From Mizuhopecten yessoensis (taxonomy: Eukaryota), in contig NW_018404492.1 of the NCBI RefSeq assembly GCF_002113885.1, forward strand, positions 6,164 through 70,163: DNA of 64,000 bases, in the 5' to 3' direction. The notes below the pieces were generated by a model that was not told the origin of the DNA, made no database searches, and was given only the letters and a program-made list of their open reading frames with translations. This document shows positions 3,001-64,000 of this stretch, piece after piece. Within the stretch, counting starts at the first letter, position 1. Each line of letters opens with the position of its first letter. The position numbers were made by a program, and so were the translations under genes.

Positions 3001-4209
3001 AATGCTCTGACTGGTATTTCATTATTCATCTGTCTGAATGCTCTGACTGATTTCTCATTATTTATCTGTCTGAATGCTCTGACTGATATCTCATTACTTA
3101 TCTGTCTGAATGCTCTGACTGGTATTTCATTATTCATCTGTCTGAATGCTCTGACTGATATCTCATTATTCATCTGGCTGCTCTGACTGGTATTTCATTA
3201 TTTATCTGTCTGAATGCTCTGACGGGTATCTCATTATTTATCTGTCTGACTGGTATTTCATTATTCATCTGTCTGAATGCTCTGACTGATATCTCATTAT
3301 TTATCTGACTGCTCTGACTGGTATTTCATTATTCATCTGTCTGAATGCTCTGACTGATTTCTCATTATTTATCTGTCTGAATGCTCTGACTGGTTTTTCA
3401 TTATTTATCTGTCTGAATGCTCTGACTGGAATTTCATTATGTATGTTTCTGACTGCTCTGACTGGTATTTCATTATTTATCTATCTGAATGCTCTGACTG
3501 GTATCTCATTATTTATCTGTCTGACTGGTATTTCATTATTCATCTGTCTGAATGCTCTGACTGATTTCTCATTATTTATCTGTCTGAATGCTCTGACTGG
3601 TTTTTCATTATTTATCTGTCTGAATGCTCTGACTGATATCTCATTATTTATCTGACTGCTCTGACTGGTATTTCATTATTCATCTGTCTGAATGCTCTGA
3701 CTGATATCTCATTATTCATCTGGCTGCTCTGACTGGTATTTCATTATTTATCTGTCTGGATGCTCTGACTGGTATCTCATTATTTATCTGTCTGACTGGT
3801 ATTTCATTATTCATCTGTCTGAATGCTCTGACTGATTTCTCATTATTTATCTGTCTGAATGCTCTGACTGATATCTCATTATTCATCTGGCTGCTCTGAC
3901 TGGTATTTCATTATTTATCTGTCTGGATGCTCTGACTGGTATCTCATTATTTATCTGTCTGACTGGTATTTCATTATTTATCTGACTGCTCTGACTGGTA
4001 TTTCATTATTCATCTGTCTGAATGCTCTGACTGATTTCTCATTATTTATCTGTCTGAATGCTCTGACTGATATCTCATTACTTATCTGTCTGAATGCTCT
4101 GACTGGTATTTCATTATTCATCTGTCTGAATGCTCTGACTGATTTCTCATTATTTATCTGTCTGAATGCTCTGACTGGTATTTCATTATTTATCTGTCTG
4201 AATGCTCTG
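1..4209. repeat. 36-bp minisatellite (aatgctctgactgRtatYtcattatttatctgtctg), runs off the left edge
   Basis: Tandem units read directly. ggtatttc and gatatctc variants often alternate, and 4-bp and 8-bp deletion variants recur. The unit explains the NALTGISLFICL / NNEISVRAFRQI ORFs. Confidence 0.97.
1704..1843. other. Assembly gap (140 N) inside the satellite
   Basis: Run of N flanked by the same repeat on both sides. Confidence 0.99.
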
Positions 4210-15049: not shown

Positions 15050-18000
15050 TTGTAGTGTTGAATACGTATGTTGGGTGTGTTGGATGCTAAATATGTATGT
15101 TGGAAAGTGTTATGTGTTAAATATGTATGGTAGGTGTGCTGTATATATGTACGTATGCAGGTTTCAGTTGTTGTTGTATATGTATGGTATGATTTGTTGG
15201 TATGCTGTATACGTATGTTGAGATGTGTTGTGCGTTGTATATGTATGGAAGGGTGTGTTGGTATGCTGTATACGTATGCTGAGATGTGTTGTGCGTTGTA
15301 TATGTATGGTAGAGTGTATCGGTATGCTGTATCCGTATGTTGAGATGTGTTGGGCGTTGTATATGTATGGTAGGGTTTGCTGGTATGCTTTATACGTATG
15401 TTGAGATGTGCTGGGCGTTGTATATGTATGGTAGAGTTTGTTGGTATGCTATATACGTATGTTGAGATGTGTTGTGCGTTGTATATGTATGGAAGGGTGT
15501 GTTTGTATGCTGTATACGTATGCTGAGATGTGTTCTGCGTTGTATATGTATGGTAGAGTGTATCTGTATGCTGTATACCTATGTTGAGATGTGTTGTGCG
15601 TTGTATATATATGGTAGAGTGTATCGGTATGCTGTATATATATGTTGAGATGTGTTGTTCGTTGTATATGTATGGTAGAGTGTATCGGTATGCTGTATAC
15701 GTATGTTGTGATGTGTTGTGCGTTGTATATGTATGGTAGAGATTGTTGGTATGCTTTATACGTATGTTGTGATGTGTTGGGCGTTGTATATGTATGGTAG
15801 AGTGTATCGGTATGCTGTATATATATGTTGAGATGTGTTGTTCGTTGTATATGTATGGTAGAGTGTATCGGTATGCTGTATACGTATGTTGTGATGTGTT
15901 GTGCGTTGTATATGTATGGTAGAGATTGTTGGTATGCTTTATACGTATGTTGTGATGTGTTGGGCGTTGTATATGTATGGTAGGGATTGTTGGTATGCTG
16001 TATACGTATGTTGAGTTGTGTTGTGCGTTGTATATGTATGGAAGGGTGTGTCGGTATGCTGTATACGTATGCTGAGATGTGTTGTGCGTTGTATATGTAT
16101 GGTGGAGTGTATCGGTATGCTGTATACGTATGTTGAGATGTGTTGGGCGTTGTATATGCATGGTAGGATTTGTTGGTATGCTGTATACGTATGTTGAGAT
16201 GTGTTGTGCGTTGTATATGTATGGTAGAGTTTGTTGGTATGCTTTATACGTATGTTGTGATGTGTTGGGCGTTGTATATGTATGGTAGAGTTTGCTGGTA
16301 TGCTGTATATGTATGTTGAGATGTGCTGGGCGTTGTATATGTATGGTAGAGTTTGCTGGCATGCTGTATATGTATGTTGAGATGTGTAGGGCGTTGTATA
16401 TGCATGGTAGGATTTGTTGGTATGCTGTAGATGTATGTTGGGATGTGTTGGGCGTTGTATATGTATGGTAGTGTTTGTTGGTATGCTGTATACGTATGTT
16501 GAGATGTGTTGGGCGTTGTATATGCATGGTAGGATTTGTTGGTATGCTGTATATGTATGTTGGGATGTGTTGGGCGTTGTATATGTATGGTAGGGTTTGT
16601 TGGTATGCTGTATACGTATGTTGAGATGTATTTGGCGTTGTATATGCATGGTAGGATTTGTTGGTATGCTGTATACGTATGCTGAGATATGTTGGGCGTT
16701 GTATATGTATGGTAGAGTGTAGCGGTATGCTGTATACATATGTTGAGATGTGTTGTGCGTTGTATATGTATGGTAGAGTGTATCGGTATGCTGTATACGT
16801 ATGTTGAGATGTGTTGGGCGTTGTATATGTATGGTAGAGTGTATCGGTATGCTGTATACATATGTTGAGATGTGTTGTGCGTTGTATATGTATGGTAGAG
16901 TGTATCGGTATGCTGTATACGTATGTTGGGATGTGTTAGGCGTTGTATATGTATGGTAGAGTGTATCGGTATGCTGTATACGTATGTTGGGATGTGTTAG
17001 GCGTTGTATATGTATGGTAGAGTGTATCGGTATGCTGTATACGTATGTTGGGATGTGTTAGGCGTTGTATATGTATGGTAGAGTGTATCGGTATGCTGTA
17101 TACGTATGTTGGGATGTGTTAGGCGTTGTATATGTATGGTAGAGTGTATCGGTATGCTGTATACGTATGTTGGGATGTGTTAGGCGTTGTATATGTATGG
17201 TAGAGTGTATCGGTATGCTGTATACGTATGTTGGGATGTGTTAGGCGTTGTATATGTATGGTAGAGTGTATCGGTATGCTGTATACGTATGTTGGGATGT
17301 GTTAGGCGTTGTATATGTATGGTAGAGTGTATCGGTATGCTGTATACGTATGTTGGGATGTGTTGTGCGTGGTATATGTACGGTAGAGTGTATCGGTATG
17401 CTGTATACGTATGTTGGGATGTGTTAGGCGTTGTATATGTATGGTAGAGTGTATCGGTATGCTGTATACGTATGTTGGGATGTGTTAGGCGTTGTATATG
17501 TATGGTAGAGTGTATCGGTATGCTGTATACGTATGTTGGGATGTGTTAGGCGTTGTATATGTATGGTAGAGTGTATCGGTATGCTGTATACGTATGTTGG
17601 GATGTGTTAGGCGTTGTATATGTATGGTAGAGTGTATCGGTATGCTGTATACGTATGTTGGGATGTGTTAGGCGTTGTATATGTATGGTAGAGTGTATCG
17701 GTATGCTGTATACGTATGTTGGGATGTGTTAGGCGTTGTATATGTATGGTAGAGTGTATCGGTATGCTGTATACGTATGTTGGGATGTGTTAGGCGTTGT
17801 ATATGTATGGTAGAGTGTATCGGTATGCTGTATACGTATGTTGGGATGTGTTAGGCGTTGTATATGTATGGTAGAGTGTATCGGTATGCTGTATACGTAT
17901 GTTGGGATGTGTTAGGCGTTGTATATGTATGGTAGAGTGTATCGGTATGCTGTATACGTATGTTGGGATGTGTTAGGCGTTGTATATGTATGGTAGAGTG

Positions 18001-19075
18001 TATCGGTATGCTGTATACGTATGTTGGGATGTGTTAGGCGTTGTATATGTATGGTAGAGTGTATCGGTATGCTGTATACGTATGTTGGGATGTGTTAGGC
18101 GTTGTATATGTATGGTAGAGTGTATCGGTATGCTGTATACGTATGTTGGGATGTGTTAGGCGTTGTATATGTATGGTAGAGTGTATCGGTATGCTGTATA
18201 CGTATGTTGGGATGTGTTAGGCGTTGTATATGTATGGTAGAGTGTATCGGTATGCTGTATACGTATGTTGGGATGTGTTAGGCGTTGTATATGTATGGTA
18301 GAGTGTATCGGTATGCTGTATACGTATGTTGGGATGTGTTAGGCGTTGTATATGTATGGTAGAGTGTATCGGTATGCTGTATACGTATGTTGGGATGTGT
18401 TAGGCGTTGTATATGTATGGTAGAGTGTATCGGTATGCTGTATACGTATGTTGGGATGTGTTAGGCGTTGTATATGTATGGTAGAGTGTATCGGTATGCT
18501 GTATACGTATGTTGGGATGTGTTAGGCGTTGTATATGTATGGTAGAGTGTATCGGTATGCTGTATACGTATGTTGGGATGTGTTAGGCGTTGTATATGTA
18601 TGGTAGAGTGTATCGGTATGCTGTATACGTATGTTGGGATGTGTTAGGCGTTGTATATGTATGGTAGAGTGTAGCGGTATGCTGTATACGTATGTTGGGA
18701 TGTGTTAGGCGTTGTATATGTATGGTAGAGTGTATCGGTATGCTGTATACGTATGTTGAGATGTGTTGTGCGTGGTATATGTACGGTAGAGTGTAGCGGT
18801 ATGCTGTATACGTATGTTGAGATGTGTTGTGCGTTGTATATGTATGGTAGAGTGTATCGGTATGCTGTATACGTATGTTGGGATGTGTTAGGCGTTGTAT
18901 ATGTATGGTAGAGTGTAGCGGTATGCTGTATACATATGTTGAGATATGTTGGGCGTTGTATATGTATGGTAGAGTGTATAGGTATTCTGTATACGTATGT
19001 TGAGATGTGGTGTGAGTTATAAATGTATAGTCGAGTTTCGTGGAGTAGACGTATGTTGAGATGTGTTGAGATGTG
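15050..19075. repeat. 61-bp GT-rich minisatellite
   Basis: Unit gttgtatatgtatggtagagtgtatcggtatgctgtatacgtatgttgggatgtgttaggc. Degenerate edges, near-identical core at about 16900-18750. Confidence 0.97.
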
Positions 19076-25573: not shown

Positions 25574-26753
25574 GTGTCATACCGGATTCCTCATGTCATA
25601 CCGGAAGCTTTTGTTGACTCGGTGCTTTATTTTTGTTCAATTCCTGGTGTCATACTGAATTCTGGTATTGATTCGGTGCTATGTTTCTGTATAAAGCCTC
25701 GTGTCATACTGGAATCTGGTGTTGACTCGGTGCTTTCTTTTTGTTCAATTCCTGGTGTCATACTGAATTCTGGTATTGATTCGGTGCTATGTTTCTGTAT
25801 AAATCCTCATGCCATACCGGATTCTGGTATTGATTCGGTGCTATGTTTCTGTATAAATCCTCGTGTCATACTGGAATCTGGTGTTGACTCGGTGCTTTCT
25901 TTTTGTTCAATTCCTGGTGTCATACCGGATTCTGGTATTGATTCAGTGCTATATTTTAGTACAAATCCTCGTATCATATCGGAGTCTAGTGTTGATTCGG
26001 GGCTCTATTTATGTACAAATTCTGGTATCATACCGGATTCTGGTATTTATTCGGTGTTTTATTTTTGTACAAATCCTGGTGTCATACCGGATTATGTTAT
26101 TGATTCGGTGCTATATTTATGTACAAATCCCGGTGTCATACCGGATTCCTCATGTCATACCGGATTCTGGTATTGATTCGGTGCTATTTCTTTTTCAATT
26201 CCTGGTGTCATACTGGATTCTGGTATTGATTCGTTGCTATGTTTCTGTATAAATCCTTGTGTCATACCGGAGTCTAGTGTTAATTCGGGGCTTTATTTAT
26301 GTACAAATCCTGGTGTCATACCGGATTCTAGTTTTGATTCGGTGCTTTATTTTTGTACAAATCCCCGTGTCATACCGGATTCTGGTATTGATTCGGTGCT
26401 ATGTTTCGGTATAAATCCTCGTGTGATACCGGAGTCTAGTGTTAATTCGGGGCTTTATTTTTGTACAAATTCTGGTGTCATACCGGATTCTGGTATTGAT
26501 TCGGTGCTTTATTTTTGTACAAATCCCAAATTCATACCGTATTCTGGTATTGATTCGATGCTATGTTTCTGTATAAATCATCGTGTGATACCGGAGTCTA
26601 GTGTTAATTCGGGGCTTTATTTATGTACAATTCATGGAGTCATACCGGATTCTGGTATTGATTCGGTGCTTTATTTTTGTATAAATCCTCGTGTCATACC
26701 GGATTCTGGTGTTGATTCGGTGCTATATTTTTGTGCAAATTCTCGTGTCATAC
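25574..26753. repeat. 54-bp minisatellite
   Basis: Unit gtgtcataccggattctggtattgattcggtgctatgtttctgtataaatcctc, about 21 diverged copies. Confidence 0.95.
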
Positions 26754-41100: not shown

Positions 41101-42220
41101 AAGGAGTCATTTGACAAAAGATCTAGGAAGTAAATATGTTTGAACATTTGACAAAGAATCTAGGAAGTGAACATGTTTGAATGAGACATTTGACAAAGGA
41201 TCTAGGAAGTGAACATGTTTGGAGAATACTTTTGACAAAGGATCTAAGAAGTGAACATGTTTGAAGGAGTCATTTGACAAAGGATCTAGGAAGTAAATAT
41301 GTTTGAATGAGACATTTAACAAAGGATCTAGGAAGTGAACATGCTTGAAGGAGTCATTTGACAAAGGATCTAGGAAGTGAACATGTTTGAATGAGACATT
41401 TGACAAAGGATCTAGGAAGTGAACATGTTTGGAGGAAACATTTGACAAAGGATCTAGGAAATGAACATGTTTGAAGGAGTCATTTGACAAAGGATCTAGG
41501 AAGTAAATATGTTTGAATGAGACATTTAACAAAGGATCTAGGAAGTGAACATGTTTAAATGAGACATTTGGCAAAGGATCTTGGAAGTGGGAATGATTGA
41601 ACGACCATTTAACAAAGGATCTTGGAAGTGAACATGTTTGAATGAGACATTTGGCAACGGATCTTGGAAGTGGGAATGATTGAACGAGACATTTAACAAA
41701 GGATCTAAGTATTGCAAATGTTTGATTGAGACATTTGGCAATTTTTCTAGGAATTTGAAAAGTGTGAATTAGATATTTAGTGACGGTTCTTGGCAGTGGT
41801 AATGTTGTAATGAGACGTTGGCAACGGTTCTATGTTATGGTCATGTTTTAATGAGACATTTGGCAAAGATCTAAGTTGTGCGAATGTTTGAACGATACAT
41901 ATGGCAACGGTTCTCGGTAGCTGGAATGTTTGAACGAGACATTTGGCAATAATTCTAAGTCGTTGAAATGTTTGAATGAGTTATTGAGCAATAATTCTAA
42001 GTAGTTGAAATGTTTGAATGAGTTACTGAGAAGGTTGAAAAAGACATTCCGAGACGGATCTTGGGTGTGTAAGTCCTTGTTGGAGATATCTACTAAAGGG
42101 TCTGTGTGACAAGGATGTTTGAATGATACATTTGTACATTTATATGGGTCTTAGGAGTGTTGACTTTTGAACGATACATCTGTTGAAGATTTTTGGCAGC
42201 GGAGACATTCGGTAAAGGGT
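38135..42220. repeat. 42-bp minisatellite with degenerate flanks
   Basis: Unit gaatgagacatttgacaaaggatctaggaagtgaacatgttt. Homogeneous at 39260-41740, decayed copies on both sides. Confidence 0.96.
38614..39257. mobile_element. Non-autonomous DNA transposon inserted in the 42-bp satellite (PIF/Harbinger-like, tentative)
   Basis: TIR ggtagcag.g.a.agtag / ctactgtacactgctacc. 3-bp direct repeat TAG (38611-38613, 39258-39260). Excision rejoins one satellite unit. Confidence 0.75.
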
Positions 42221-42575: not shown

Positions 42576-44082
42576 TACTAGCGGATAAAAATAACTGTGC
42601 ATGCATAAAATGTGTTGTAAAAATAAATGTGTATGACGTAGAACAACAAGGTTTTCGGGGATAATTTATTTGTTATTTAATAACAGTCACATTCCATTTT
42701 CCACGTTATGGAATCAATACGTTCCGCTCAGGAGTGACGTAAACACAGCAGTGGTCAATACCGAGTTCACAAAGTTAATACCTCGTATGTCGACCGTTTG
42801 CCTAAATGCAAGCCTGGTAACGTCGACGCATGGAGCCTATCAGACGGTTCAAGAATGCTTGTGGGAGGGCATTCCAGATCTGTACCAACGCTGCAGCCAA
42901 ATCAGTCAACGTCACCGGTTGATTAGGTAATGCCCGTAATCTGCGCTTCCTTTCATCCCAGACGTGATCAATGGGCGACAGATCGGGGGATACAGCAGGC
43001 CAGGACAACACGTCAACGTTCTGCTTGGCCAGAAAGTCCATAGCGACATGAGCTGTGTGTGTCCTGGCGTTGTCCTGCTGTAGCGTTATGTGACGTTGCT
43101 GCCCTTGCACGATTAAACGACGTGAGTCCGGAAATCTCGTCACGGTAACATAGCGCGTTTAAATTCCCGTCAACAACCACCAGAGGCATTCTCCCGTTGG
43201 CTGTGATGCCGCCCCAAATCATAACGCTGCCTCCGCCGAAAGAGCGTCGTTGTACCACACACGCGTCACGGAAACGTTCTCCAACGCGACGATACACTCT
43301 GAAACGGCCGTCACTACTATCCAGGTGGACTCGCGACTCGTCCGTTAAAAAAAATGCCTGCCCAATCCCGTCGAGTAAATCGCAAATGCCTTCTATACAG
43401 TTCAGACGTGCTACACGATGACGTGGCAGAAGAACTGGGCGGATTGCAGGACGTCGCGGACAGATAGCTCGTTCACGCAATCGGTTCTGTACAGTTCTCG
43501 GGCTTATTGGTAGCAACCCAGAGATTGTCCGTGCAGTCAAACTTGTCGTTTAGAAGCAATTTCTCAAATGGACAAGCCGAACATGGTTGTCCTGTTGACG
43601 TGACGTCACACGTGGACGTACCGCACGAGGTCGATCGCCGACGTGGCCAAACTGTTGATGTCGTCTCCACAAATCCCGGATTGTGTTTCGATGGACATGA
43701 GAACGTGTAGAGACAACGGCTTAGCCCATACCAGCTTGAAGCATACCAATAATCTGGAGGCGGTCATTTTCATTGAGCCTCGGCATAGTATTAATCACAA
43801 ATTAAAACGTTATAATGCTCTTTTTACTGTTCACTGGTCTCAACAGAGTGACCCAACAGTTGAAAAATAAACTTTCATTGTCGAATTGGATGGCTGGCCG
43901 AGAAAAACGTGCAAACTGGTCAACGCCTATAGAGAGCAAACTACACGGGAAAAACTGTCAATGACACACGGATAGTGTGTATGTGCCATACTCGGTCATG
44001 TGTGTGAATTTTCATGTATATACAGTTGTTAATACATGTTCTATAACAATTCTTCGCATACACAGTTTCTTTTCCGCTAATA
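42576..44082 (-). mobile_element. Decayed Tc1-family DNA transposon
   Basis: Degenerate TIRs of about 30 bp (tactagcggataaaaataactgtgcatgc / gcatacacagtttcttttccgctaata) in TA runs, enclosing a transposase remnant. Confidence 0.85.
42775..43786 (-). pseudogene. Tc1-like DDE transposase pseudogene
   Basis: MPRLNENDRLQIIGMLQAG..., ISPRTVQNRLRE, FLTDESR, FGGGSVMIWGGI, LQQDNARTH, WPAVSPDLSPIDHVWD, CI*ANGRHTRY. Several stops and frameshifts. Confidence 0.93.
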
Positions 44083-47605: not shown

Positions 47606-48067
47606 GCCATTGTACCTATATGCCTACCTATGCCATTGTACCTATTTGCCTACCTATGCCATTGTACCTATATGCCTACCTATGCCATTGTATCTATATG
47701 CCTATGGCATTGTACCTATAAGCCTACCTATGCCATTGTACCTATATGCCTAACTATGCCATTGTACCTATATGCCTACCTATGGCATTGTACCTATATG
47801 ACTACCTATGCCATTGTACCTATATGCCTACTTATACCATTGTACCTATATGCCTACCTATGCCATTGTACCTATATGCCTACCTATGCCATTGTATCTA
47901 TATGCCTACCTATGGCATTGTACCTATATGCCTACCTATGCCATTATACCTATATGCCTACCTATGCCATTGTACATATATGCCTACCTATGGCATTGTA
48001 CCTATATGACCACCTATGCCGTTGTACCTATATGCCTACCTATGCCATTGTACCTATATGCCTACCT
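47606..48067. repeat. 26-bp minisatellite
   Basis: tatgcctacctatgccattgtaccta, about 18 copies. Confidence 0.96.
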
Positions 48068-50423
48068 TTGTTCGGCTAGTATTCCACATTCGTTTGCATT
48101 ATCAATATAAGCAAATGTATTGGAGCATTCAACATTTTACCTTACTCAGTAGAATATAAACGAAGTGCCTGTTAATTGTCATTATAAGGTATATCGAATG
48201 CTTAAGTGGCTAAGCCGAAACCTTAATCTAAGACTGTTGTGAGTGCGAGTCATGCTAATCCTGACAGTTTCATTCCCACCTTAAGCTTTGAATCCAGAAA
48301 CACTTCGGAATACAGACTGGAAAGCTGTCTCCCGAAAATAATAGCTGAATATATAGCTGCATTATTGCATCTCCGGAGGCTGGATTAGGGTTAAGAGTTC
48401 TGAAGGGAAGGAAATGGAGTCAGAATCTAAAAAAGAAGATATATACTATGACACATGACATGTCAACGTTATTGTTGTCTGAACGATAAAATTTGATAAT
48501 TGAAGTGATATGAAAGGGATCCTCACTTCATACATTCCTGCTGAGACAACTGTTAAGAATCTGCAGTAACAACACGGTACTATCCGGCCTACAGTGGATG
48601 CTATATCAAAAAGAGAGCGTTCTACTCAAATAGATTAACAATGGAACCTACCACTCGAAGGCTGAATAATAATTCGATAATAATCGTTTTTCTACAGTCT
48701 ACGTAAAGCTTGAAACCGTTTAGATGACTTGTAAATTCAGCCTTTCATTCACTTTAATGTGTGACAGGGACTAAACTTAATACAATCGGTCGTGAACAAC
48801 ATTTTGAGGAACACTTTGTCTCATTTGCTAACAGCAATATCTTCTCTCAAAGGAATCAAATATATGTCTTAGCTTTGAATACAAGTGACCGTTTAAATGC
48901 TTGATCGATACGGTGGCTGGTTTGCTGTCGAGATGGCGTCCCCAGAAGGCTAAACAAATCGCTACGTCACAGATACATCATTCATTAATCCGGTGTAATT
49001 GTCAGGCCAGAATGGTTTAGCTGTGACCGCTACAGACACCAATGTTTTGCATGCGTTGGTCCCACTTTCACCCTCCGCTCTCTCGTCCATATCTCAGCGT
49101 TTATGGAGCCTGATCTCGCAATATACTGGATGTCTGTTTATTTCTTTTGTGAATATGTGGTCCAACGATTGCGAGGTCTTACACTCAAGTAAGTACAGTA
49201 TGGCATTGTCCACGCAATGCAGCCTATTTTGTTTGTGTCATCGCAATGTATTTAGTGTTATGTTTCCCAATGCATTCTTTGAAAGCCTCGGCTACATAAA
49301 ACATACTCTTTTAGCACTAAACGTTTAAGACCCTGTTTAGGACTCCGTAACGCTAAGTGTTCATCTATCAAAGTTAATGCATACTGACCTGTAGCTTGCA
49401 TATTGCCATTTGATAAGACACGCCCGCCTCTACATGATGGGATTAGCAATCGTATGTCGTGAGAGTGTAGCCATGCAGTAACATGTACATGTACCAAAGT
49501 ACATGTTTACCGGCGTTTTCGGTAAACTGGTCGTCTGCTCAGGAACAAGCGTACTGAGACTAAATACTGTACATTGCAGAATTGCATGACGATGTTTCTA
49601 CATGTTGCGTTCTGTCCGCTTTGCAAGTATGGAAGCATGCATCATTGCCATTAAGGAGCTAATGCCTGTTTCAAAACTGATTAACACTCTGCCATGTAGA
49701 CTGCCGTCACGTGGTTCAACAATACATCTAGTCGAATTGCTGAACAGACGAGTATATAACACCAAGAGCATACTTCTTTTGTGTTTTGTCAGCCCTTTGT
49801 ATTATTATATGATCGACAATTTAGTTTCTTTATTTACTGAGACTTTAAAATGAAATTATTTCTTAATCGAAATTTCCGTCAAAAGCTACAAATTGTTCCC
49901 ATATCTAAATTGCTCAATCTGCTGCATGCTGCTGTTTTCTCTGATTTGTCAAGACCAGAGCCAAGTTAAACGCCACCTTTGTCTAGTGTCTGTCAGACAT
50001 TCCTTTCACATCCGTACTTCAGACCACTGTAAGTGATGTCTGTCTGTATGTCATTACAGAGCTGCTGCACAGACTAAAACAAAATGAGAAATATTTACTC
50101 CTTTGTGTATTTGCGTATGTCTGGCGAGCCAATCTCATGTTTTTAAGAATTGGTCAAAGTACAATGGATTACTCCCAATTAACTTTCCTGGCGTGGATCC
50201 CGTGACTTGCCTGGGTCTCTCGATCTTTGGTTGATTATAAGTCAATTTAGACTTTGCTAAATTTGCTCCCTTGGATGTTTGATTTTATGTTTGAAACTAG
50301 GCAGATATAAGCTAGTAAAATAATGTTGGAAGTCAGTCAATAAGTACCCCTTACGTATGGTACAAAGTGTACAGTCGTTTTTAACAATGAGACAAGGGTA
50401 GACATGGTAATCGCTATATAGGT

Positions 50424-50649
50424 GTGGTCGGGAGGCGCAGTGGACAGCGCACGCGCGTTTCGCCAAGATGGCCTGAGTTCAGTTCCCCGATCAGACGTGT
50501 AAAGGTATTGGGTTACCTTGCCGATCACGTGTTGTTTTCCATTACTCCAGTTTCCTTCCTCAATAAGGCCATGTTCGCTTCAATCCGAGCCAAAAAGAGT
50601 TATAACTATCAGTTGGAAGAACTGGTTTTATAACTGTTGTAAAATAAAT
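50424..50649 (+). mobile_element. tRNA-derived SINE, same family as 4429-4643
   Basis: gtggtcgggaggcgcagtgg (A-box-like), gagttcagttccc (B-box-like), core gtaaaggtattgggttaccttgccgatcacgtg and tail ataactgttgtaaaataaat, all shared with the other copy. Confidence 0.75.
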
Positions 50650-52556
50650 GTATATACAACCTCTCTATAGCTTGGTCGGACTGTAAACTTTCCTTATGGA
50701 TAAAGTAAAATAAATGTATATACAACCTCTCCATAGGATGGTCGGACTGTAAACGTTCCTTATGGATAAGGTAAAATAAATGTATATACCACCTCTCCAT
50801 AGCTTGGTCGGACTGTAAACGTTCCTTATGGATAAGGTAAAATAAATGTATATACAACCTATCCATAGCTTGGTCGGACTGTAAACTTTCCTTATGGATA
50901 AGGTAAAATAAATATATATACAACCTCTCCATAGCTTGGTCGGACTGTAAACTTTCCTGATGGATAAGGTAAAATAAATGTTTATACAACCTCTCCATAG
51001 GTTGGTCGGACTGTATACTTTCCGTATGGATAAGGTAAAATAAATGTATATACAACCTCTCTATAGCCTGGTCGGACTGTAAACGTTCCTTATGGATAAG
51101 GTAAAATAAATGTATATACAACCTATCCATAGCTTGGTCGGACTGTAAACTTTCCTTATGGATAATGTAAAATAAATATATATACAACCTCTCCATAGGT
51201 TGGTCGGACTGTATACTTTCCGTATGGATAAGGTAAAATAAATGTATATACAACCTCTCTATAGCCTGGTCGGACTGTAAACGTTCCTTATGGATAAGGT
51301 AAAATAAATGTATATACCACCTCTCCATAGCTTGGTCGGACTGTAAACGTTCCTTATGGATAAGGTAAAATAAATGTATATACAACCTCTCTATAGCTTG
51401 GTCGGACTGTAAACTTTCCTTATGGATAATGTAAAATAAATATATATACAACCTCTCCATAGGTTGGTCGGACTGTATACTTTCCTTATGGTTAAGGTAA
51501 AATAAATGTATATACAACCTCTCCATACCTTGGTCGGACTGTAAACTTTCCTTATGGATAAAGTAAAATAAATGTATATACAACCTCTCCATAGCTTGAA
51601 CGGACTGTAAACTTTCCTTATGGATAAGGTTAAATAAATGAATATACAACCTCTCCATAGGTTGGTCGGACTGTATACTTTCCTTAGGGATAAGGTAAAA
51701 TAAATGTATATACAACTTCTCCATAGCTTGGTCGGACTGTAAACTTTCCTGATGGATAAGGTAAAATAAATGTTTATACAACCTCTCCATAGGTTGGTCG
51801 GACTGTAAACTTTCCTTATGGATAAGGTTAAATAAATGAATATACAACCTCCCCATAGGTTGGTCGGACTGTATACTTTCCTTAGGGATAAGGTAAAATA
51901 AATGTATATACAACCGCTCCATAGCTTGAACGGACTGTAAACTTTTCTTATGGATAAGGTTAAATAAATGAATATACAACCTCCCCATAGGTTGGTCGGA
52001 CTGTATACTTTCCTTAGGGATAAGGTAAAATAAATGTATATACAACTTCTCCATAGCTTGGTCGGACTGTAAACTTTCCTTATGGATAAGTTAACAAAAA
52101 ATGTATATACAACCTCTCCATAGCTTGGACGGACTGTAAACTTTCCTTATGGATAAGGAAAAATAAATGTATATACAACCTCTCCATAACTTGGTCGGAC
52201 TGTAAACTTTCCTTATGAGTAAGGTAAAATAAATGTATATACAACCTCTCCATAGGTTGGTCGGACTGTAAACTTTCCTTATGGATAAGGTAACAAAAAA
52301 TGTATATACAACCTCTCCATAGCTTGGTCGGACTGTAAACTTTCCTTATGAGTAAGGTAAAATAAATGTATATACAACCTCTCCATAGCTTGGTCGGACT
52401 GGAAACTTTCCTTATGGATAAGGTAAAATAAATGTATATACAACTTCTCCATAGCTTGGTCGGACTGTAAACTTTCCTTATGGATAAGGTAAAATAAATG
52501 TATATACAACCTCTCTATAGCCTGGTCGGACTGTAAACGTTCCTTATGGATAAGGT
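50639..52556. repeat. 66-bp minisatellite, about 29 copies
   Basis: gtaaaataaatgtatatacaacctctccatagcttggtcggactgtaaactttccttatggataag. Confidence 0.97.
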
Positions 52557-52894: not shown

Positions 52895-55425
52895 GCTCAC
52901 AAACAGACGATGAGTGATAAACCCGCTAAATGTCTCAGGAAGTCTAGACTATGTCCGTCAACTGTCTCTTCGTCAGATGATCTAGAGGTGTTATATTAAC
53001 AACTATGTGTCGCCACTAGTTCTGGCAATATCCTAATTATATCGACTGAGAGTAAAAGTCTACGACATCTTTTGATGAGTTTTTGCGACCCGAAATAAAT
53101 GATGCTGATTGATGGTTTATCTGGTGACCGATATCAAAAAACGGAATGTTGTGAGAGGGTGTATATGATTGGTTCAGTAAAATTACTCGTTACCAAGTCA
53201 GTAAATGGCAGATGTGACATGTGGAATACTTCCAAGGAAAACAATGTTTATGCAATAAATAAGGAACATATTGAGCGTGATGTTAGGATGATGACATGTA
53301 AAAGATTTGTTTACTGCACTAATTTTTTTTTACTCAAGATTCAAATTGTTAAACATTAAACACGTGATATTTTAACTACTGTAAATTTAACATTCAAATA
53401 CCTTAGACATTTTGTCAAGTAGATATTTCATTGTTTGCTTACGTGCCCGCAGGAAGGGACGAAAGTGAGGGTAAGAAACGAAAATGTTAAATCACATACA
53501 CTATTCAAGATTCAATGAGAAGGAGGTAATAAGGAAAAGAGTTATTGGCCAGCATACCCTCATACAATGTTTCCCCGCTGTTGACCTATACAATGAACCA
53601 CAGTCACAGTTTTCAATGGAATTTTCAGTATAACTGTATCAACATCATAAGTATACTTCAAGTAGTCATCAGACACAAAACAAATAGAGAAAATATCGAC
53701 GTTTGTCAATTTTGTTTAATTAATCAGTTTCCTTTGAAATCGTATATTTCAAATCATTTGTATGAAAACAGTTTAATTATGAAGAGAACTAGCACGTAAA
53801 CCATCCAAAAGCATCATATACTAGTGAATCAAACGTATTTATTATAAATAGAAGTTGAGCAAAACTAAAGTAAAGATAATACAGCAAATCACATAACTGA
53901 TCCATTTTACTATGTCTTACTGCTATGTCATAACTATGGTATTACACATCTGTAATAAAATACTACTTTTATCACAATACAACATGATACATTAACTGTA
54001 ATTTTAAACTAATTTGAAAAGTTTGTTTTGGTATTTTCACTGCCATTTAAAACTGTACATTATTTATTTTTAAAAAGAAAGAAAAAATCTTGAACTACTT
54101 TGCACTGCACAGAACGACAATACCATGATCGGCAGTTTTAACTGTCAACTGAGAACACAAAATTGTCTCTGAATTTGTTTGGCAAATTATGAATAGTATG
54201 TGATATATAAAATCTTCCATTCGTGGTCATGTCATATTGAATTCATACATGCATGTATTAATATATAACACGCATTTATTTCTACAAACAAACAAAAACA
54301 ACTCCAAATTCTAACACCGTATCCGGTCTCGTGTACAACACCAGGATCGATTGAACACCTGGAGTTTATCATAAGGCTGCCACATGTGGACTCCGGTGGG
54401 GAGGGAATATAATAACAGTGCTCTATCATGCAAATCCCTTGCTGACACTGGCAATGATTTAGGACTACTAGTACTAGACAATCACTCCTATTATTCAACA
54501 TCCCCAACATAACTATATTGATCACTTTGAGCTGCTATTGACATAGGCCATACCCGGTGATTAATTTCAATTACAATCGTGTGCGTTCACGCTCGGTTAT
54601 TTTCCTTCATGTTAATTTGTTGTGTTCCGAAGTTCCCGCAAAGTACATACAAGATAGTCACTTGCTTTCAGTACGCGCTCACATGAAACATATCTTCTGG
54701 TGCATTGTACAGAAGAAGAATTGTTCGAGTTTCGAGCATGTTTCGAGCATTGAAAAAAACACCTTCTAATAAGCTTAGAAGACATTAGTCCCACTCAGGC
54801 CCTGGCCACTGTCGATCCTACACTTCGTCAATGATGCTACTAAGAGTTTGTAGAGTTATTGTTCTGTGTCAAACTGAAAGACGAATACCCCACCAATGTA
54901 AGTATATATACACCCGAACTGCATGATAATAACATGTTTTTCAATTTGTGTGAGAGGAAAGGCTAAAGTTACATGTATATAAGTTCGTTGACGGTAACAC
55001 GAGTCCACGTTACAAAAAATGTACTACCTTAATATTTAGTAATGAGTGACTTCGTAAAAAAAACAATGTTTTAATGTCATTTGTATTTATTGAGTATATG
55101 AATAAACGAGTTACATGTTTGCTTCGCAAATTTGAAGCCAGCTTAGTTCCGTTACAGTAAGTACACATTACTGGTATCTAGAGCCACAGCTGTGTAGCTG
55201 TTACATTGTACACGAGTTTAATCACGGGTTAGGGACCAGACATAGCAATGATGTAGAGACCGGATTCCACAAACGTATGCGATATTCAATATATGTCATT
55301 GATTGTTAGCGAGTATTGCGTATGAATACCAGATCAATGATAAGATTTCATCTTTACAGAAAGTGACAAACATTTCTCATATGTGACAGGGATTTTACAC
55401 ATATGTAAGTCCGAGTTGATAAATC

Positions 55426-58400
55426 GTGTTGACAGTGTCTCGGTGTAGATGAACATTGTGTAAGCCTATACTTGTTTGTGTTGACAGTGTTCCGGTGTAG
55501 ATGAACCTTGTGTAAGCCTATACTTGTTCGTGGTGACAGTGTCCCGGTGTAGATGAACATTGTGTAAGCCTAGCCTATACTTGTTGTGGTGACAGTATCC
55601 CGGTGTAGATGAACCTTGTGTAAGGCTATACTTGTTCGTGGCGACAGTGTCCCGGTGAAGATGAACATTGAACCTTGTGTAAGGCTATACTTGTTCGTGG
55701 TGACAGTGTCCAGGTGTAGATGAACATTGAGTAAACCTATACTTGTTTGTGGAGACAGTGTCCCGGTGGAGATGAACATTGGGTAAGCCTATACTTGATC
55801 GTGGTGACAGTGTCTCGGTGTAGATGAGCATTGTGTACGCCTATACTTGTTTGTGGAGACAGTGTCCCGGTGAAGATGAACATAGTGTAAGCCTATACTT
55901 GTTTGTGTTGACAGTGGTCCGTGTAGATGAACATTGTGTAAGCTTATACTTGTTTGTGGTGACAGTGTCCCGGTGTAGATGAGCATTGTGTAAGCCTATA
56001 CTTGTTTGTGTTGACAGTGTCCCGGTGAAGATGAACATAGTGTAAGCCTATACTTGTTGTGTTGACAGTATCCCGGTGTAGATGAACATTGTGTAAGCCT
56101 ATACTTGTTTGTGGTGACAGTGTCCCGGTGTAGATGAACATTGTGTTAGCCTATACTTGTTTGAACATTGTGTAAGCCTATACTTGTTGTGGTGACAGTA
56201 TCCCGGTGTAGATGAACATTGTGTAAGCCTATACTTGTTTGTGGTGACAGTGTCCCGGTGTAGATAGACATTGTGTAAGCCTATACTTGTTGTGGTGACA
56301 GTATCCCGGTGTAGATGAACATGGTGTAAGCCTATACATGTTTGTGTTGACAGTGTCCCGGTGTAGATGAACATAATCCTAAATTATACTTGTTTGTGGT
56401 GACAGTGTCCCGGTGTAGAGGAACATTGTGTTAGCCTATACTTGTTTGAACATTGTGTCAGCCTATACTTGTTGTGGTGACAGTATCCCGGTGTAGATGA
56501 ACATGGTGTAAGCCTATACATGTTTGTGTTGACAGTGTCCCGGTGTAGATGAACATCGTGTAAGCCTATACTTGTTTGTGGTGACAGTGTCGCGGTGTAG
56601 GTGAACATTGTGTAAGCCTATACTTGTTTGTGTTAACAGTGTCCCGGTGTAAATGAACATTGTGTAAGCCTATACTTGTTTGTGTTGACAGTGTTCCGAT
56701 GAAGATGAAAATTGTGTAAGCCTATACTTGTTTGTGTTGACAGTGTTCCGATGAAGATGAAAATTGTGTAAGCCTATACTTGTTTGTGTTGACAGTTGTT
56801 GTGGTGACAGTATCCCGGTGTAGATGAACATTGTGTAAGCCTATCCTTGTTTGTGGTGACAGTGTCCCGGTGTAGATGAGCATTGTGTAAGCCTATACTT
56901 GTTTGTGTTGACAGTTGTTGTGGTGACAGTATCCCGGTGTAGATGAACATGGTGTAAGCCTATACATGTTTGTGTTGACAGTGTCCCGGGGTAGATGAAC
57001 ATTGTGTAAGCCTATACTTATTTGTGTTGACAGTTTCCCGGTGTAAATGAACATTGTGTAAGCCTATACTTGTTTGTGGTGACAGTGTCCCGGTGTAAAT
57101 GAACATTGTGTAAGCCTATACTTGTTTTTCGACAGTGTCCCGGTGTAGAGGAACATTGTGTAAGCCATACTTGTTTGTGGTGACAGTGTCCCGGTGTAGA
57201 TGAACATTGTGTAAGCCTATACTTATTTGTGTTGACAGTGTCCCGGTGTAAATGAACATTGTGTAAGCCTATTCTTGTTTGTGTTAACAGTGTCCCGGTG
57301 TAAATGAACATTGTGTAAGCCTAGACTTGTTTTTGTTGACAGTGTCCCGGTGTAGAGGAACATTGTGTAATCCTTTACTTGTTTATGGTGACAGTGTCCC
57401 GGTGTAGATGAACATTGTATAAACCTATACTTGTTTGTGTTGACAGTGTCCCGGAGTAAATGAACGTTGTGTAAGCCTATACTTGTTTTTGTTGACAGTG
57501 TCCCGGTGTAAATGAACATTGTGTAAGCCTATACTTGTTTTTGTTGACAGTGTCTCGGTGTAGATGAACATTGTGTAAGCCTATACTTGTTTGCGTTGAC
57601 AGTGTCCCGGTGAAGATGAACATTGTGTAAGCCTATACTTGTTTGTGTTAACAGTGTCCCGGTGTAAATGAACATTGTGTAAGCCTATACTTGTTTTTGT
57701 TGACAGTGTCCCGGTGTAGAGGAACATTGTGTAATCCTTTACTTGTTTATGGTGACAGTGTCCCGGTGTAGATGAACATTGTGTAAACCTATACTTTTTT
57801 GTGTTGACAGTGTCCCGGTGTAGATGAACATTGTGTAAGCCTATCTATACTTGTTTGTGGTGACAGTGTCCCGGTGTAGATGAACATTGTGTAAATCTAT
57901 ACGTGTTTGTGGTGACATTTTCCCGGTGTAGATGAACGTTGTGTAAACCTATACTTGTCCGGTGTAGATGAACATTGTGTAAGCCTATACTTGTTTATGT
58001 TGACAGTGTCCCGGTGTAAATGAACATTGTGTAAGCCTAGACTTGTTTTTGTTGACAGTGTCCCGGTGTAGAGGAACATTGTGTAAGCCATACTTGTTTG
58101 TGGTGACAGTGTCCCGGTGTAGATGAACATTGCGTAAATCTATACGTGTTTGTGGTGACATTTTCCCGGTATAGATGAACGTTGTGTAAACCTATACTTG
58201 TTTGTGTTGACAATGTCCCGGTGTAGATGATCATTGTGTAAACCTATACTTGTTTGTGTTAACAGTGTCCCGGTGTAAATGAACATTGTGTAAGCCTAGA
58301 CTTGTTTTTGTTGACAGTGTCCCGGTGTAGAGGAACATTGTGTAATCATTTACTTGTTTATGGTGACAGTGTCCCGGTGTAGATGAACATTGTGTAAATC

Positions 58401-59614
58401 TATACGCGTTTGTGGTGATATTTTCCCGGTGTAGATGAACGTTGTGTAAACCTATACTTGTTTGTGTTGACAATGTCCCGGTGTAGATGATCATTGTGTA
58501 AACCTATACTTGTTTGTGTTAACAGTGTCCCGGTGTAGAGGAACATTGTGTAATCCTTTACTTGTTTATGGTGACAGTGTTCCGGTGTAGATGAACATTG
58601 TGTAAGCCTATACTTGTTTGTGTTGACAGTGTCCCGGTGTAGATGAACATAAACCTAAACTTGTTTGTGGTGACAGTGTCCCGGTGTAGATGAACATTGT
58701 GTAAATCTATACGTGTTTGTGGTGACATTTTCCCGGTGTAGATGAACGTTGTGTAAACCTATACTTGTTTGTGTTGACAATGTCCCGGTGTAGATGATCA
58801 TTGTGTAAACCTATACTTGTTTGTGTTAACAGTGTCCCGGTGTAGATGAACATTGTGTAAACCTATACTTATTTGTGTTAACAATGTCCCGGTGCAGATG
58901 AACATTGTGTAAACTTATACTTGTGTGTGGTGACAGTGTCCCGGTGTTGATGAACATTGTGTAAGCCTATGCTTGTTTGTGTTGACAGTGTCCCGGTGCA
59001 GATGAACATTGTGTAAACCTCTACTTGTTTGTGGTGACAGTGTCCCGGTGTAGATGAACATTGTGTAAACCTATACTTGTTTGTGTTAACAATGTCCCGG
59101 TGTAGATGAACATTGTGTAAACCTATACTTGTTTGTGTTGACAATGTCCCGGTGTAGATGAACATTGTGTAAACTTATACTTGTGTGTGTTGACAGTGTC
59201 CCGGTGTAGAGGAACATTGTGTAAGCCTATACTTGTTTGTGGTGACCGGGTCCCGGTGTAAATGAACATTGTGTAAGCCTATACTTGTTTGTGTTGACAG
59301 TGTCCCGGTGTAGATGAACATTGTGTAAGCCTATACTTGTTTGTGTTGACAGTGTTCCGATGAAGATGAAAATTGTGTAAGCCTATACTTGTTTGTGTTG
59401 ACAGTGTCCCGGTGTAAAGGAACATTGTGAAAGCCTATACTTGTTTGTGGTGACCGGGTCCCGGTGTAAATGAACATTATGTAAGCCTATACTTGTTTGT
59501 GTTGACAGTGTCCCGGTGTAGATAAACATTGTGTAAGCCTATACTTGTTTGTGTTGACAGTGTCCCGTTGTAGATGAACCCTGTGTAAGCCTGTTCTTGT
59601 TTGTGTTGACAGTG
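55426..59614. repeat. 52-bp minisatellite, about 80 copies, ending at an exon acceptor
   Basis: cctatacttgtttgtgKtgacagtgtcccggtgtagatgaacattgtgtaag. Confidence 0.97.
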
Positions 59615-59716
59615 ACCAAGGGTGAAATCAACTTCCACAATGCTGCCAAAGAGAACGATTTACCGGCCATAGAGAAACTTCTCTCGGACAGAGTGGACAT
59701 CAACTGTAAAAACAAC
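59613..59716 (+). CDS. ANKDD1A: Ankyrin repeat and death domain-containing 1-like protein, exon (TKGEINFHNAAKENDLPAIEKLLSDRVDINCKNN)
   Basis: ttgacag| acceptor and |gttagt donor, 104 bp, phase 1 to phase 0. Encodes an ankyrin repeat and joins in frame to 61047. Confidence 0.88.
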
Positions 59717-60183
59717 GTTAGTTTGTTTTCTAATTTTGTTTTGGTGTGTCCTGACTTTGAAGAATAAATATTTTCAATACGTCGTGTGTAAAAACGTAAT
59801 ATTTAGTTATTCTCCTCCATTGGACATTTGGAAAGATTATATTTTTCTGTAACAGTTAGATAGATGTTCACTTACCGATGACCAATTATAATAGCACTGC
59901 CATTGTGCAAACATATAGGCATTGCTTTACATAAGTGTATTTTCCTTTTTGACATTTGATCTTGTGGATAATGATAAAGTAAACACATCTTTACCAATCT
60001 TAATGGTAGGGAAACGAAATATCGACTCTTAGGGAAGAGCATTGACTTTCTAACCTTCGGCTAAAGTGAAAAAAACTGCCTCCGATTAAACTATCACAGT
60101 AGTCTCTTTAGGGGGATGATTTCTCAATCCTACCCTCAGGGCAAGGACTATCCTTTTCTTCGCATTCAAAATGTCTCATATGC

Positions 60184-60644
60184 GTATTGCTTTGTTCTGT
60201 TTATTGACCGTTTGACATTATTACTACACATACTCATCCAGTGTATGGGTATTACTTTGTTCTGTTTATTTACCGTTTGACATTATTACTACACATACAC
60301 ATCCATTGTATGGGTATTGCTTTGTTCTGTTTATTGACCGTTTGACATTATTACTACAAATACACATCTATTGTATGGGTATTGATTTGTTCTGTTTATT
60401 GACCGTTTGACATTATTACTACACATACACATCCAGTGTATGGGTATTACTTTGTTCTGTTTATTGACCGTTTGACATTATTACTACACATACACAGCCA
60501 GTGTATGGGTATTACTTTGTTCTGTTTATTTACCGTTTGACATTATTACTACACATACACATCCATTGTAAGGGTATTGCTCTGTTCTGTTTATTGACCG
60601 TTTGACATTATTACTACACATACACATCCATTGTATGGGTATTG
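60184..60644. repeat. 65-bp tandem repeat x7 (intronic)
   Basis: gtattgctttgttctgtttattgaccgtttgacattattactacacatacacatccattgtatgg. Confidence 0.96.
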
Positions 60645-61046: not shown

Positions 61047-61145
61047 CTGGACAGAACAGCGCTTCACTGGGCTGCTGCTAATGGCAATACGGCTATCATT
61101 GAGAAATTGATCGAAGGAGGAGCGGATCTGGAGGCTAAGGACAAG
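61047..61145 (+). CDS. ANKDD1A: ANKDD1-like exon (LDRTALHWAAANGNTAIIEKLIEGGADLEAKDK)
   Basis: ccacag| acceptor and aag|gtaatg donor. 99 bp encoding one canonical 33-aa ankyrin repeat, phase 0/0. Confidence 0.95.
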
Positions 61146-61669: not shown

Positions 61670-63280
61670 GTCGACTTGTTGTTTCGGCAACTGATCCTGG
61701 TGTGTCGACTACTAATCATGTTCTGTCAACTACCAATCATGTAGTGTTTATTACTGATCACGTTGTGTCGAATACGGTTCATGTTGTGTTGATTACTGAT
61801 CACGTTGTGTCGCCTATGGATCATGTCGTGTTGATTACTGATATGATCGCATATTGATCATGTTGTGTCGACCATTGATCATGTTGTGTCGACCATTGAT
61901 CATGTTGTATATTGTGTCGACCATTGATCATGTTGTGTCGACCATTGATCATTTTTTGTGGACTATTGGTCATGTGTAGGCAACTGGACATGCTGTATGG
62001 ACTACTGATCATGGCATGTCGACTACTAATCATGGCATGTCGTGCTGTGTCGACTATTGATCATGTTGTGTCGACCATTGGTCATGTGTATCCTGTATGG
62101 ACTACTGATCATGGCATGTCGACTACTGATCGTGCTGTGTCGACCGTTGATCATATTTTGTCGACTATTGGTCATATGTGTGCTGTATGGACTACTGATC
62201 ATTGCATGTCGACTACTGACCGTGCTGTGGCGACTATTGATCATGTTGTGTCGACCATTGATCATGTTGTATATTGTGTCGACCATTGATCATGTTGTGT
62301 CGACCATTGATCATGTTGTGTCGACCATTGATCATATTTTTTCGACTATTGGTCATATGTATGCTGTATGGACTACTGATCATTGCATGTAGACTACTGA
62401 TCGTGCTGTGTCGACTATTGATAATGTTGTGTCGACCATTGATCATATTTTGTCGACTATTGGTCATATGTATTCTGTATGGACTACTGATCATGGCATG
62501 TCGACTGCTGATCGTGCTGTGTCGACTATTGATCATGTTGTGTCGACCATTGGTCATGTGAATCCTGTATGGACTACTGATCATGGCATGTCGTCTACTG
62601 ATCGTGCTGTGTCGACTATTGATCATGTTGTGTCGTCCATTGATCATATTTTGGTCGACTATTGGTCATGTGTATGCTGTCTGGACTACTGATCATTGCA
62701 TGTCGACTACTGACCGTGCTGTGGCGACTATTGATCATGTTGTGTCGACCATTGATCATATTTTTTCGACTATTGGTCATATGTATGCTGTATGGACTAT
62801 TGATCATGGGATATCGACTACTGATCGTGATGTGTCGACTATTGGTCATATGTATGCTGTATGGACTACTGGTCATTGCATGTCGACTACTGATCGTGCT
62901 GTGCCGACTATTGATCATGTTGTGTCGACCATTGGTCATGTGTATCCTGTATGGACTACTGATCATGGCATGTCGTCTACTGATCGTGCTGTGTCGACTA
63001 TTGATCATGTTGTGTCGTCCATTGATCATATTTTGGTCGACTATTGGTCATGTGTATGCTGTATCGACTACTGATCATTGCATGTCGACTACTTATCGTG
63101 CTGTGTCGACTATTGATCATGTTGTGTCGAACATTGGTCATATTTTGGTCGACTATTGGTCATGTGTATGCTGTATGGACTACTCATAATTGCATGTCGA
63201 CTACTGATCATGCTGTGTCGACTATTGATCATGTTGTGTCGACTATTGATCATGTTGTGTCGGCAACTGATCATGTTGTC
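61670..63280. repeat. 21-bp minisatellite with 90/111-bp higher-order units (intronic)
   Basis: Monomer gtcgaccattgatcatgttgt. The marker tatggactactga recurs at 62096, 62186, 62367, 62478 and 62568. Confidence 0.94.
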
Positions 63281-63395: not shown

Positions 63396-63494
63396 TATGG
63401 TATGCGGCCAGTTTTATGGGCAGCCTGGTTTGGTCACTTGGACGCCCTCAAACTACTCATTAACTCTGGTGCTACTGCTAAATGTTCTAACAAG
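63396..63494 (+). CDS. ANKDD1A: ANKDD1-like exon (YGMRPVLWAAWFGHLDALKLLINSGATAKCSNK)
   Basis: tttcag| acceptor and aag|gtgcgt donor, 99 bp. The GM...L.AWFGHL..L..L.NSGA...C..K pattern matches my recollection of vertebrate ANKDD1A. A versus B orthology cannot be resolved here. Confidence 0.93.
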
Positions 63495-63837: not shown

Positions 63838-63942
63838 CAAGGGATGTGTATACTCCACTGTGCTTCACAGAACAACAACGTTAATGTCATAAATTTCGTG
63901 CTGGAATCTCTCGAAAACGTCGACGTCAATGAAATGGAAAAG
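63838..63942 (+). CDS. ANKDD1A: ANKDD1-like exon (QGMCILHCASQNNNVNVINFVLESLENVDVNEMEK); gene continues beyond the window
   Basis: tttcag| acceptor and aag|gtagta donor, 105 bp, phase 0/0. LHCA.Q and F..E.LE.V resemble ANKDD1A. The death domain is not in the window. Confidence 0.93.
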
Positions 63943-64000
63943 GTAGTACGTATTCAATAAGTATGACAAGGTTCATGTCAATTTTCGAAGGCAAATCGTA

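Follow-up and report, generated by a model that had tools for sequence, protein, structure and literature searches.

A locus-specific 52-bp minisatellite ending in the 3′ splice site of a scallop ANKDD1A-like exon: a probably neutral boundary array

Introduction

Can a long tandem repeat whose last unit is the 3′ splice site of an exon influence the splicing of this exon, and how does such a repeat originate? The question is raised by an ankyrin exon in the Mizuhopecten yessoensis stretch of 64,000 nt analysed here (the window), which is immediately preceded by a 52-bp minisatellite. The initial annotation, made from the letters alone, proposed that the repeat arose by amplification of the intron end and that it could act as a bank of decoy acceptors or of 24-nt cassettes coupled to NMD, with copy number tuning expression. 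We addressed these proposals using RNA reads, the structure of the array, splice-site scores, and a census of comparable arrays in the same genome.

The array-bearing gene and its splicing

Judged by its sequence, the array-bearing gene is scallop ANKDD1A-like. The protein cluster to which it belongs has members in Ylistrum, Pecten, Argopecten, and Mizuhopecten, and the cluster proteins combine ankyrin repeats with a weak death-domain match. The representative search returned generic ankyrin matches only, and the ankyrin family search, which gave mostly long open frames, was left unused. The annotated protein P0005 maps as 16 exact pieces, from position 20541 of the window onward into L016 (Table 1).

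Junction evidence comes from X24, a poly(A) run made without NMD inhibition, of which roughly one quarter was read. All 11 loose ends before 59613 read the end of the exon at 34375, and all 13 at 34375 continue into the beginning of the ankyrin exon; the acceptor-side and donor-side reads overlap and represent a single run. Since the loose ends agree from both sides, the intron is 34376–59612. Splicing into the array was seen in 0/13 donor-side and 0/11 acceptor-side reads of this shallow sample, the former giving an upper bound near 21%. Runs X23 and X20 had two partly aligned reads each, below the listing threshold, X22 and X14 had none, and raw RNA depth on 59540–59605 was absent in three runs (19, 1, and 0 reads aligned). 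In the reads of this one shallow run without NMD block, regular splicing is undisturbed by the array. All X24 junction reads, within these limits, use 59613, which leaves the proposed function as a decoy-acceptor or NMD cassette bank unsupported, without refuting low-level use, and makes the caveat of the initial annotation that the repeat may be silent the better reading. The phase 1 which it assigned to the gene is borne out by the RNA junction and by P0005.

The X24 reads start near 34151 (34151–34302), with no listed loose end upstream, and this fits a promoter-proximal isoform with an ATG at 34270, which shares 11 identical residues with Pecten isoform X3. The predicted exon 49155–49188 has a strong donor and resembles Pecten maximus isoform X4 in 8 of 11 residues. 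Two Pecten isoforms carry different N-termini ahead of the junction, one of them with a counterpart at 49155–49188, and none of eight scallop proteins has an insert at the exon junction. The exon-like stretch 55360–55404, which lies 21 nt before the array, begins after AG, ends at GTAAGT, and has mid-range scores, is unused in the reads; as a candidate upstream exon it was ruled out, the reads joining 34375 instead.

Table 1. Features of the window and of the splice-site arrays sampled elsewhere in the genome
Feature	Coordinates	Strand	Remarks
52-bp minisatellite	55426..59612	+	81 full units and one partial unit; locus-specific; occupies the 3′-terminal 4.2 kb of the 25.2-kb intron (34376-59612)
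Terminal unit	59561..59612	+	bears the 3′ splice site in use
Exon with first ankyrin repeat of ANKDD1A-like protein	59613..59716	+	104 nt; phase 1 in, phase 0 out
Upstream exon	34303..34375	+	donor CAA/GTAAGC joins 59613 in all listed reads
Predicted alternative first coding exon	49155..49188	+	MWSNDCEVLHS; donor CAA/GTAAGT; would share acceptor 59613; absent from reads
First coding exon of annotated P0005	20541..20582	+	protein match alone
Next ankyrin exon	61047..61145	+	RNA joins to 59716; protein match
Two further ankyrin exons	63396-63494, 63838-63945	+	P0005 match; gene continues past the window in L016
Ten other minisatellites, first five	2-4209, 15173-19068, 25588-26753, 28365-29240, 34979-36034
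Ten other minisatellites, last five	39272-41949, 47606-48067, 50639-52556, 60179-60644, 61690-63279
Acceptor-spanning minisatellites	L145:3108-3250, L153:4255-5254, L147:7004-7994, L175:6022-6701	+, +, -, -	at LDLa/TSP1 exons
Donor-spanning arrays	L148:1-2140, L082:4-464, L136:2908-4312, L157:9419-10000	-, -, -, +

The array and its units

The array of about 80 copies reported in the initial annotation is real: a 10-nt partial unit is followed by 81 full units, and the assembly across 55426–59612 is free of N gaps. The claimed register with the exon also stands, the AG of the last unit being the acceptor that is spliced in RNA. Outside the array the 52-bp unit was not found in the genome, since 35/35 DNA matches and 39/39 pattern matches, the DNA search giving lower bounds, fall inside it. 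A dispersed satellite or a transposon-borne repeat is ruled out by this absence of matches beyond the array. Because the unit is confined to one locus, the array grew in place. Blocks of four units recur within it at offsets of 5–11 units, as expected from unequal exchange. In run X1 the depth was 175.9 on the repeat versus 3.3 on unique intron, a ratio that is not taken as copy number.

One may ask whether the array was mis-joined to the exon during assembly, as no aligned read or contig crosses from the terminal unit into the exon with 31 nt to either side. Nevertheless, the units carry ordered variants without a gap, all 15 sampled words of 59561–59760 are present in four runs of one sample (possibly the source sample), and the acceptor is itself the AG of the unit, so that the exon needs it. 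An assembly artefact is therefore extremely unlikely.

The window as a whole is minisatellite-rich. Its ten other long arrays have unrelated units, and none of them touches the mapped P0005 exons. Two broken mobile elements also lie here on the reverse strand: reverse-transcriptase frames at 31360–32723 (RVT_1 matches), in an intron, presumably a LINE relic, and a Tc1-like transposase in two frames at 42802–43549 (DDE_3 and HTH_Tnp_Tc3_2 matches), within the array-bearing intron.

The AG at the unit boundary is kept in 64/81 units by the census and in 68 by a looser count of ACAG-T, so the description of the array as about 80 near-identical acceptors was overstated. By the same census, AG followed by 24 nt and GT occurs in 58/81 units, by GTAAG in 42/81, and by GTAAGC in 41/81; the last pattern, ascribed earlier to most units, thus belongs to about half. 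The in-frame TGA of the typical cassette was confirmed, being present in the gene’s phase-1 frame in 39 of the 42 units with AG and GTAAG. The stop-free variants that keep GTAAG were found as well, with GAGGAAC and GTAAGC, in units beginning at 57136, 58059, and 59197; in a further five stop-free units the motif is GTAATC or GTTAGC. Read-through was examined from four internal AGs, and a stop is reached within 6–9 codons. The +5 G of the donor is missing in 24/36 units at positions 38–73, in 2/37 early units, and in 0/8 last ones. Recursive splicing was rejected as a candidate, the AG of the unit preceding TG and not GT, which leaves no ratchet point.

The terminal unit has a distinct tract, as had been noticed (CCTGTTC versus CCTATAC elsewhere). 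Its overall divergence is unexceptional: it differs from the consensus at 5 positions, and at least 5 differences are present in 16/60 ungapped units, itself included, although its three private changes tie for the most. The hexamer GTAAGC is common to the repeat unit and the real donor of the intron (34376–34381); we read this as coincidence, and 4/181 sampled donors have it.

Splice sites were scored with matrices built from sampled LDLa/TSP1 sites of this genome, which are phase-1 biased, the donor matrix being from 261 picks. The used acceptor is at the 83rd percentile and the internal acceptors have a median at the 66th, 2/68 of them matching or beating the used one. The cassette donor TGT/GTAAGC scores at the 4th percentile, or at the 36th when intron positions alone are counted, so its suspected weakness holds, while the internal acceptors come near to real ones. 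The exon’s own donor is also weak (9th percentile). Since the internal acceptors are competent and the exon’s own donor is weak, scores alone cannot exclude internal use. None of three branch-point motifs tried was found in the terminal or internal units, and they do not separate the two.

These properties bear on the possibility that the array is a bank of poison microexons or decoy acceptors, whereby 24-nt units with TGA are included, the transcripts are degraded, and copy number tunes the ANKDD1A-like output. NMD targets are depleted in poly(A) reads, which counts in favour of this possibility. It is also in line with the abundance of units with AG, 24 nt, and GTAAGC, with the in-frame stops, with the acceptor scores, and with the ABCA7 precedent, for which PMC5954066 gives one-unit retention of ~2% and a length effect. 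Against it stand the junction reads, shallow and without NMD block as they are, the weak cassette donor with its frequent loss of the +5 G in the middle units, and the lack of a counterpart of the array elsewhere in the genome. Moreover, the cassette look needs no selection, because chance alone places a GTRAG at a multiple of three in 24/744 (~3%) simulated 52-nt boundary units. Boundary arrays are also common in this genome (see below), which argues against a decoy or NMD function. Such a bank is very unlikely.

Origin of the repeat unit

A resemblance between the 24-nt part of the unit and the initial ~20 nt of exon 59613–59716 was spotted by eye and tested post hoc. The exact overlap between unit and exon is 2 nt, the ~20 nt being degenerate. 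Anchored alignment of the unit with the exon start gave p 0.04–0.09 versus random AG sites and 0.23–0.41 with the shared TG fixed; this score is matched by 7/187 real exon starts and by 2/21 of those starting with TG. In the profile test, also post hoc, the log-likelihood ratio of 2.1–2.7 is reached by 2–4/186 real exon starts, 5/600 random AG sites, and 37–40/400 AG-TG sites. Overall the resemblance is marginal, with p about 0.01–0.1 versus AG sites or exon starts and 0.09–0.41 given TG.

For comparison, LDLa and TSP1 module exons were mapped in the genome, which gave 187 acceptor and 181 donor calls; they come from large module genes and form a non-random sample. One acceptor (L145:4556) proved to be a false call inside an array and was dropped, leaving 186. 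Arrays span 4/186 acceptors, with an exon overlap of 8–17 nt in all four; at the donors, an array lies within 12 nt in 11/181 cases, and 4/181 are spanned, with an exon overlap of 12–51 nt. The eight spanning cases are spread over seven contigs. Arrays cover 14% of the sampled regions, and random seeding predicts roughly 1.8–3.7 spanning cases versus 8/367 observed, an excess of 2–4 times over this rough estimate (P 0.0007–0.035). For this genome, these data give an initial rough estimate: arrays span about 2% of the splice sites sampled.

The four sampled acceptor-spanning arrays have periods of 37, 38, 44, and 54 and 4–26 copies, and their units contain clear exon-start sequence. Because all four of these other acceptor-side arrays include the exon start, the most plausible reading of the weak resemblance in the ANKDD1A-like gene is an exon start that has decayed. 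Thus the unit likely began, as far as its sequence indicates, as a short duplication across the intron–exon boundary, and the 24-nt “microexon” may be what is left of the exon’s own beginning, a marginal match at present. The initially proposed amplification of the intron end is thereby retained as a local process, the unit being found nowhere else, and extended, since ~20 nt of exon start were probably included as well. On the donor side, the L148 array has a 63-bp unit in at least 34 copies with 100% match, each containing the donor and about 50 nt from the end of the exon; this array is very young and would test splicing better than the 52-bp array.

One can also suppose a neutral repeat with a purely intronic seed, the terminal 52 nt of the intron, in which case the unit would resemble the exon start by chance. 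The exact overlap of just 2 nt, the loss of significance given TG, and several sampled donor-side arrays that begin right at the splice site and include hardly any exon sequence, or none, speak for such an origin. Conversely, the profile favours common origin roughly 8–14 to 1, and the other sampled acceptor-side arrays hold the exon start in 4/4 cases. We therefore consider an intron-only origin unlikely.

Discussion

The presented data suggest that the array is a locus-specific minisatellite derived from a boundary duplication, the last unit being the used acceptor and the internal copies being skipped, and that it is probably neutral; as a whole, we regard this reading as probable. If boundary-duplication and intron-only origins are taken together, a probably neutral array of the type called mirage in amphioxus is strongly favoured.

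We suppose that the seed comprised about 30 nt of intron end and about 20 nt of exon start, which slippage or unequal exchange may have amplified and homogenised. The intron-derived half of the last unit would have kept evolving together with the array, while the exon, constrained at the protein level, would have diverged from the copies. By exon definition, a 104-nt exon is preferred to pseudo-exons of 24 nt. The last AG may win in this way, since it alone opens the 104-nt exon and has the best tract, while the internal units would offer just 24-nt pseudo-exons with a weak donor. The locus is a natural test of how, among about 65 near-identical acceptors, the spliceosome selects the last one.

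The array would matter more if splicing or expression changed with its length, as in the case of the ABCA7 VNTR. It would act as a copy-number dial if each of the ~40 intact units were usable as a stop-bearing 24-nt microexon, longer alleles leading to more mRNA decay. Such a dial appears highly improbable; if it were true, the rate of ~2% of sampled scallop splice sites would imply wide, unrecognised expression variation in bivalves.

Splice-site repeats are known in human genes. The 25-bp VNTR in intron 18 of ABCA7 contains a donor, and PMC5954066 relates its length to exon skipping. Like the scallop array, it is a long intronic repeat including a real splice site; it differs in lying on the donor side and in having a demonstrated functional effect, whereas no such effect is seen in the scallop. 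The 37-bp VNTR in IVS7 of human F7 repeats a splice site, the pseudo-sites being potentially functional and normally silent according to PMC1557585. There, on the donor side, the first site wins by scanning, while in the scallop array, on the acceptor side, the last site wins.

The closest counterpart is provided by the mirage minisatellites of amphioxus, for which we found no report in molluscs in the open-access literature. PMC3087553 describes them as tandem copies of intron–exon boundaries, many with AG/GT, which are length-unstable and leave splicing undisturbed, and PMC3902484 agrees; the boundary units are excluded from homogenisation (PMC3087553). The genes named in the two papers are Adh3, the globins BflGb6 and BflGb9, troponin C, and PGBD5.

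Apart from its exon content, which is marginal (2 nt exact and ~20 nt degenerate), the scallop array behaves like an amphioxus mirage on the features tested. It shares with mirages the tandem copies in an intron, which probably derive from an intron–exon boundary, splice signals kept in many but not all units, normal mRNA splicing, a distinct boundary unit with concerted evolution, a unit within the mirage range of 10–160 bp, and the register with a real splice site. In BflGb6 the repeat joins the 3′ intron end and a 5′ exon part, as is likely for the scallop unit. The differences are the host, a bivalve instead of a cephalochordate, the 81 copies versus 3–6 in BflGb6, the putative exon-derived part decayed to borderline recognition, and the donor-like hexamer in each unit. 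The scallop array represents a large, clean bivalve example of the repeat type named in amphioxus.
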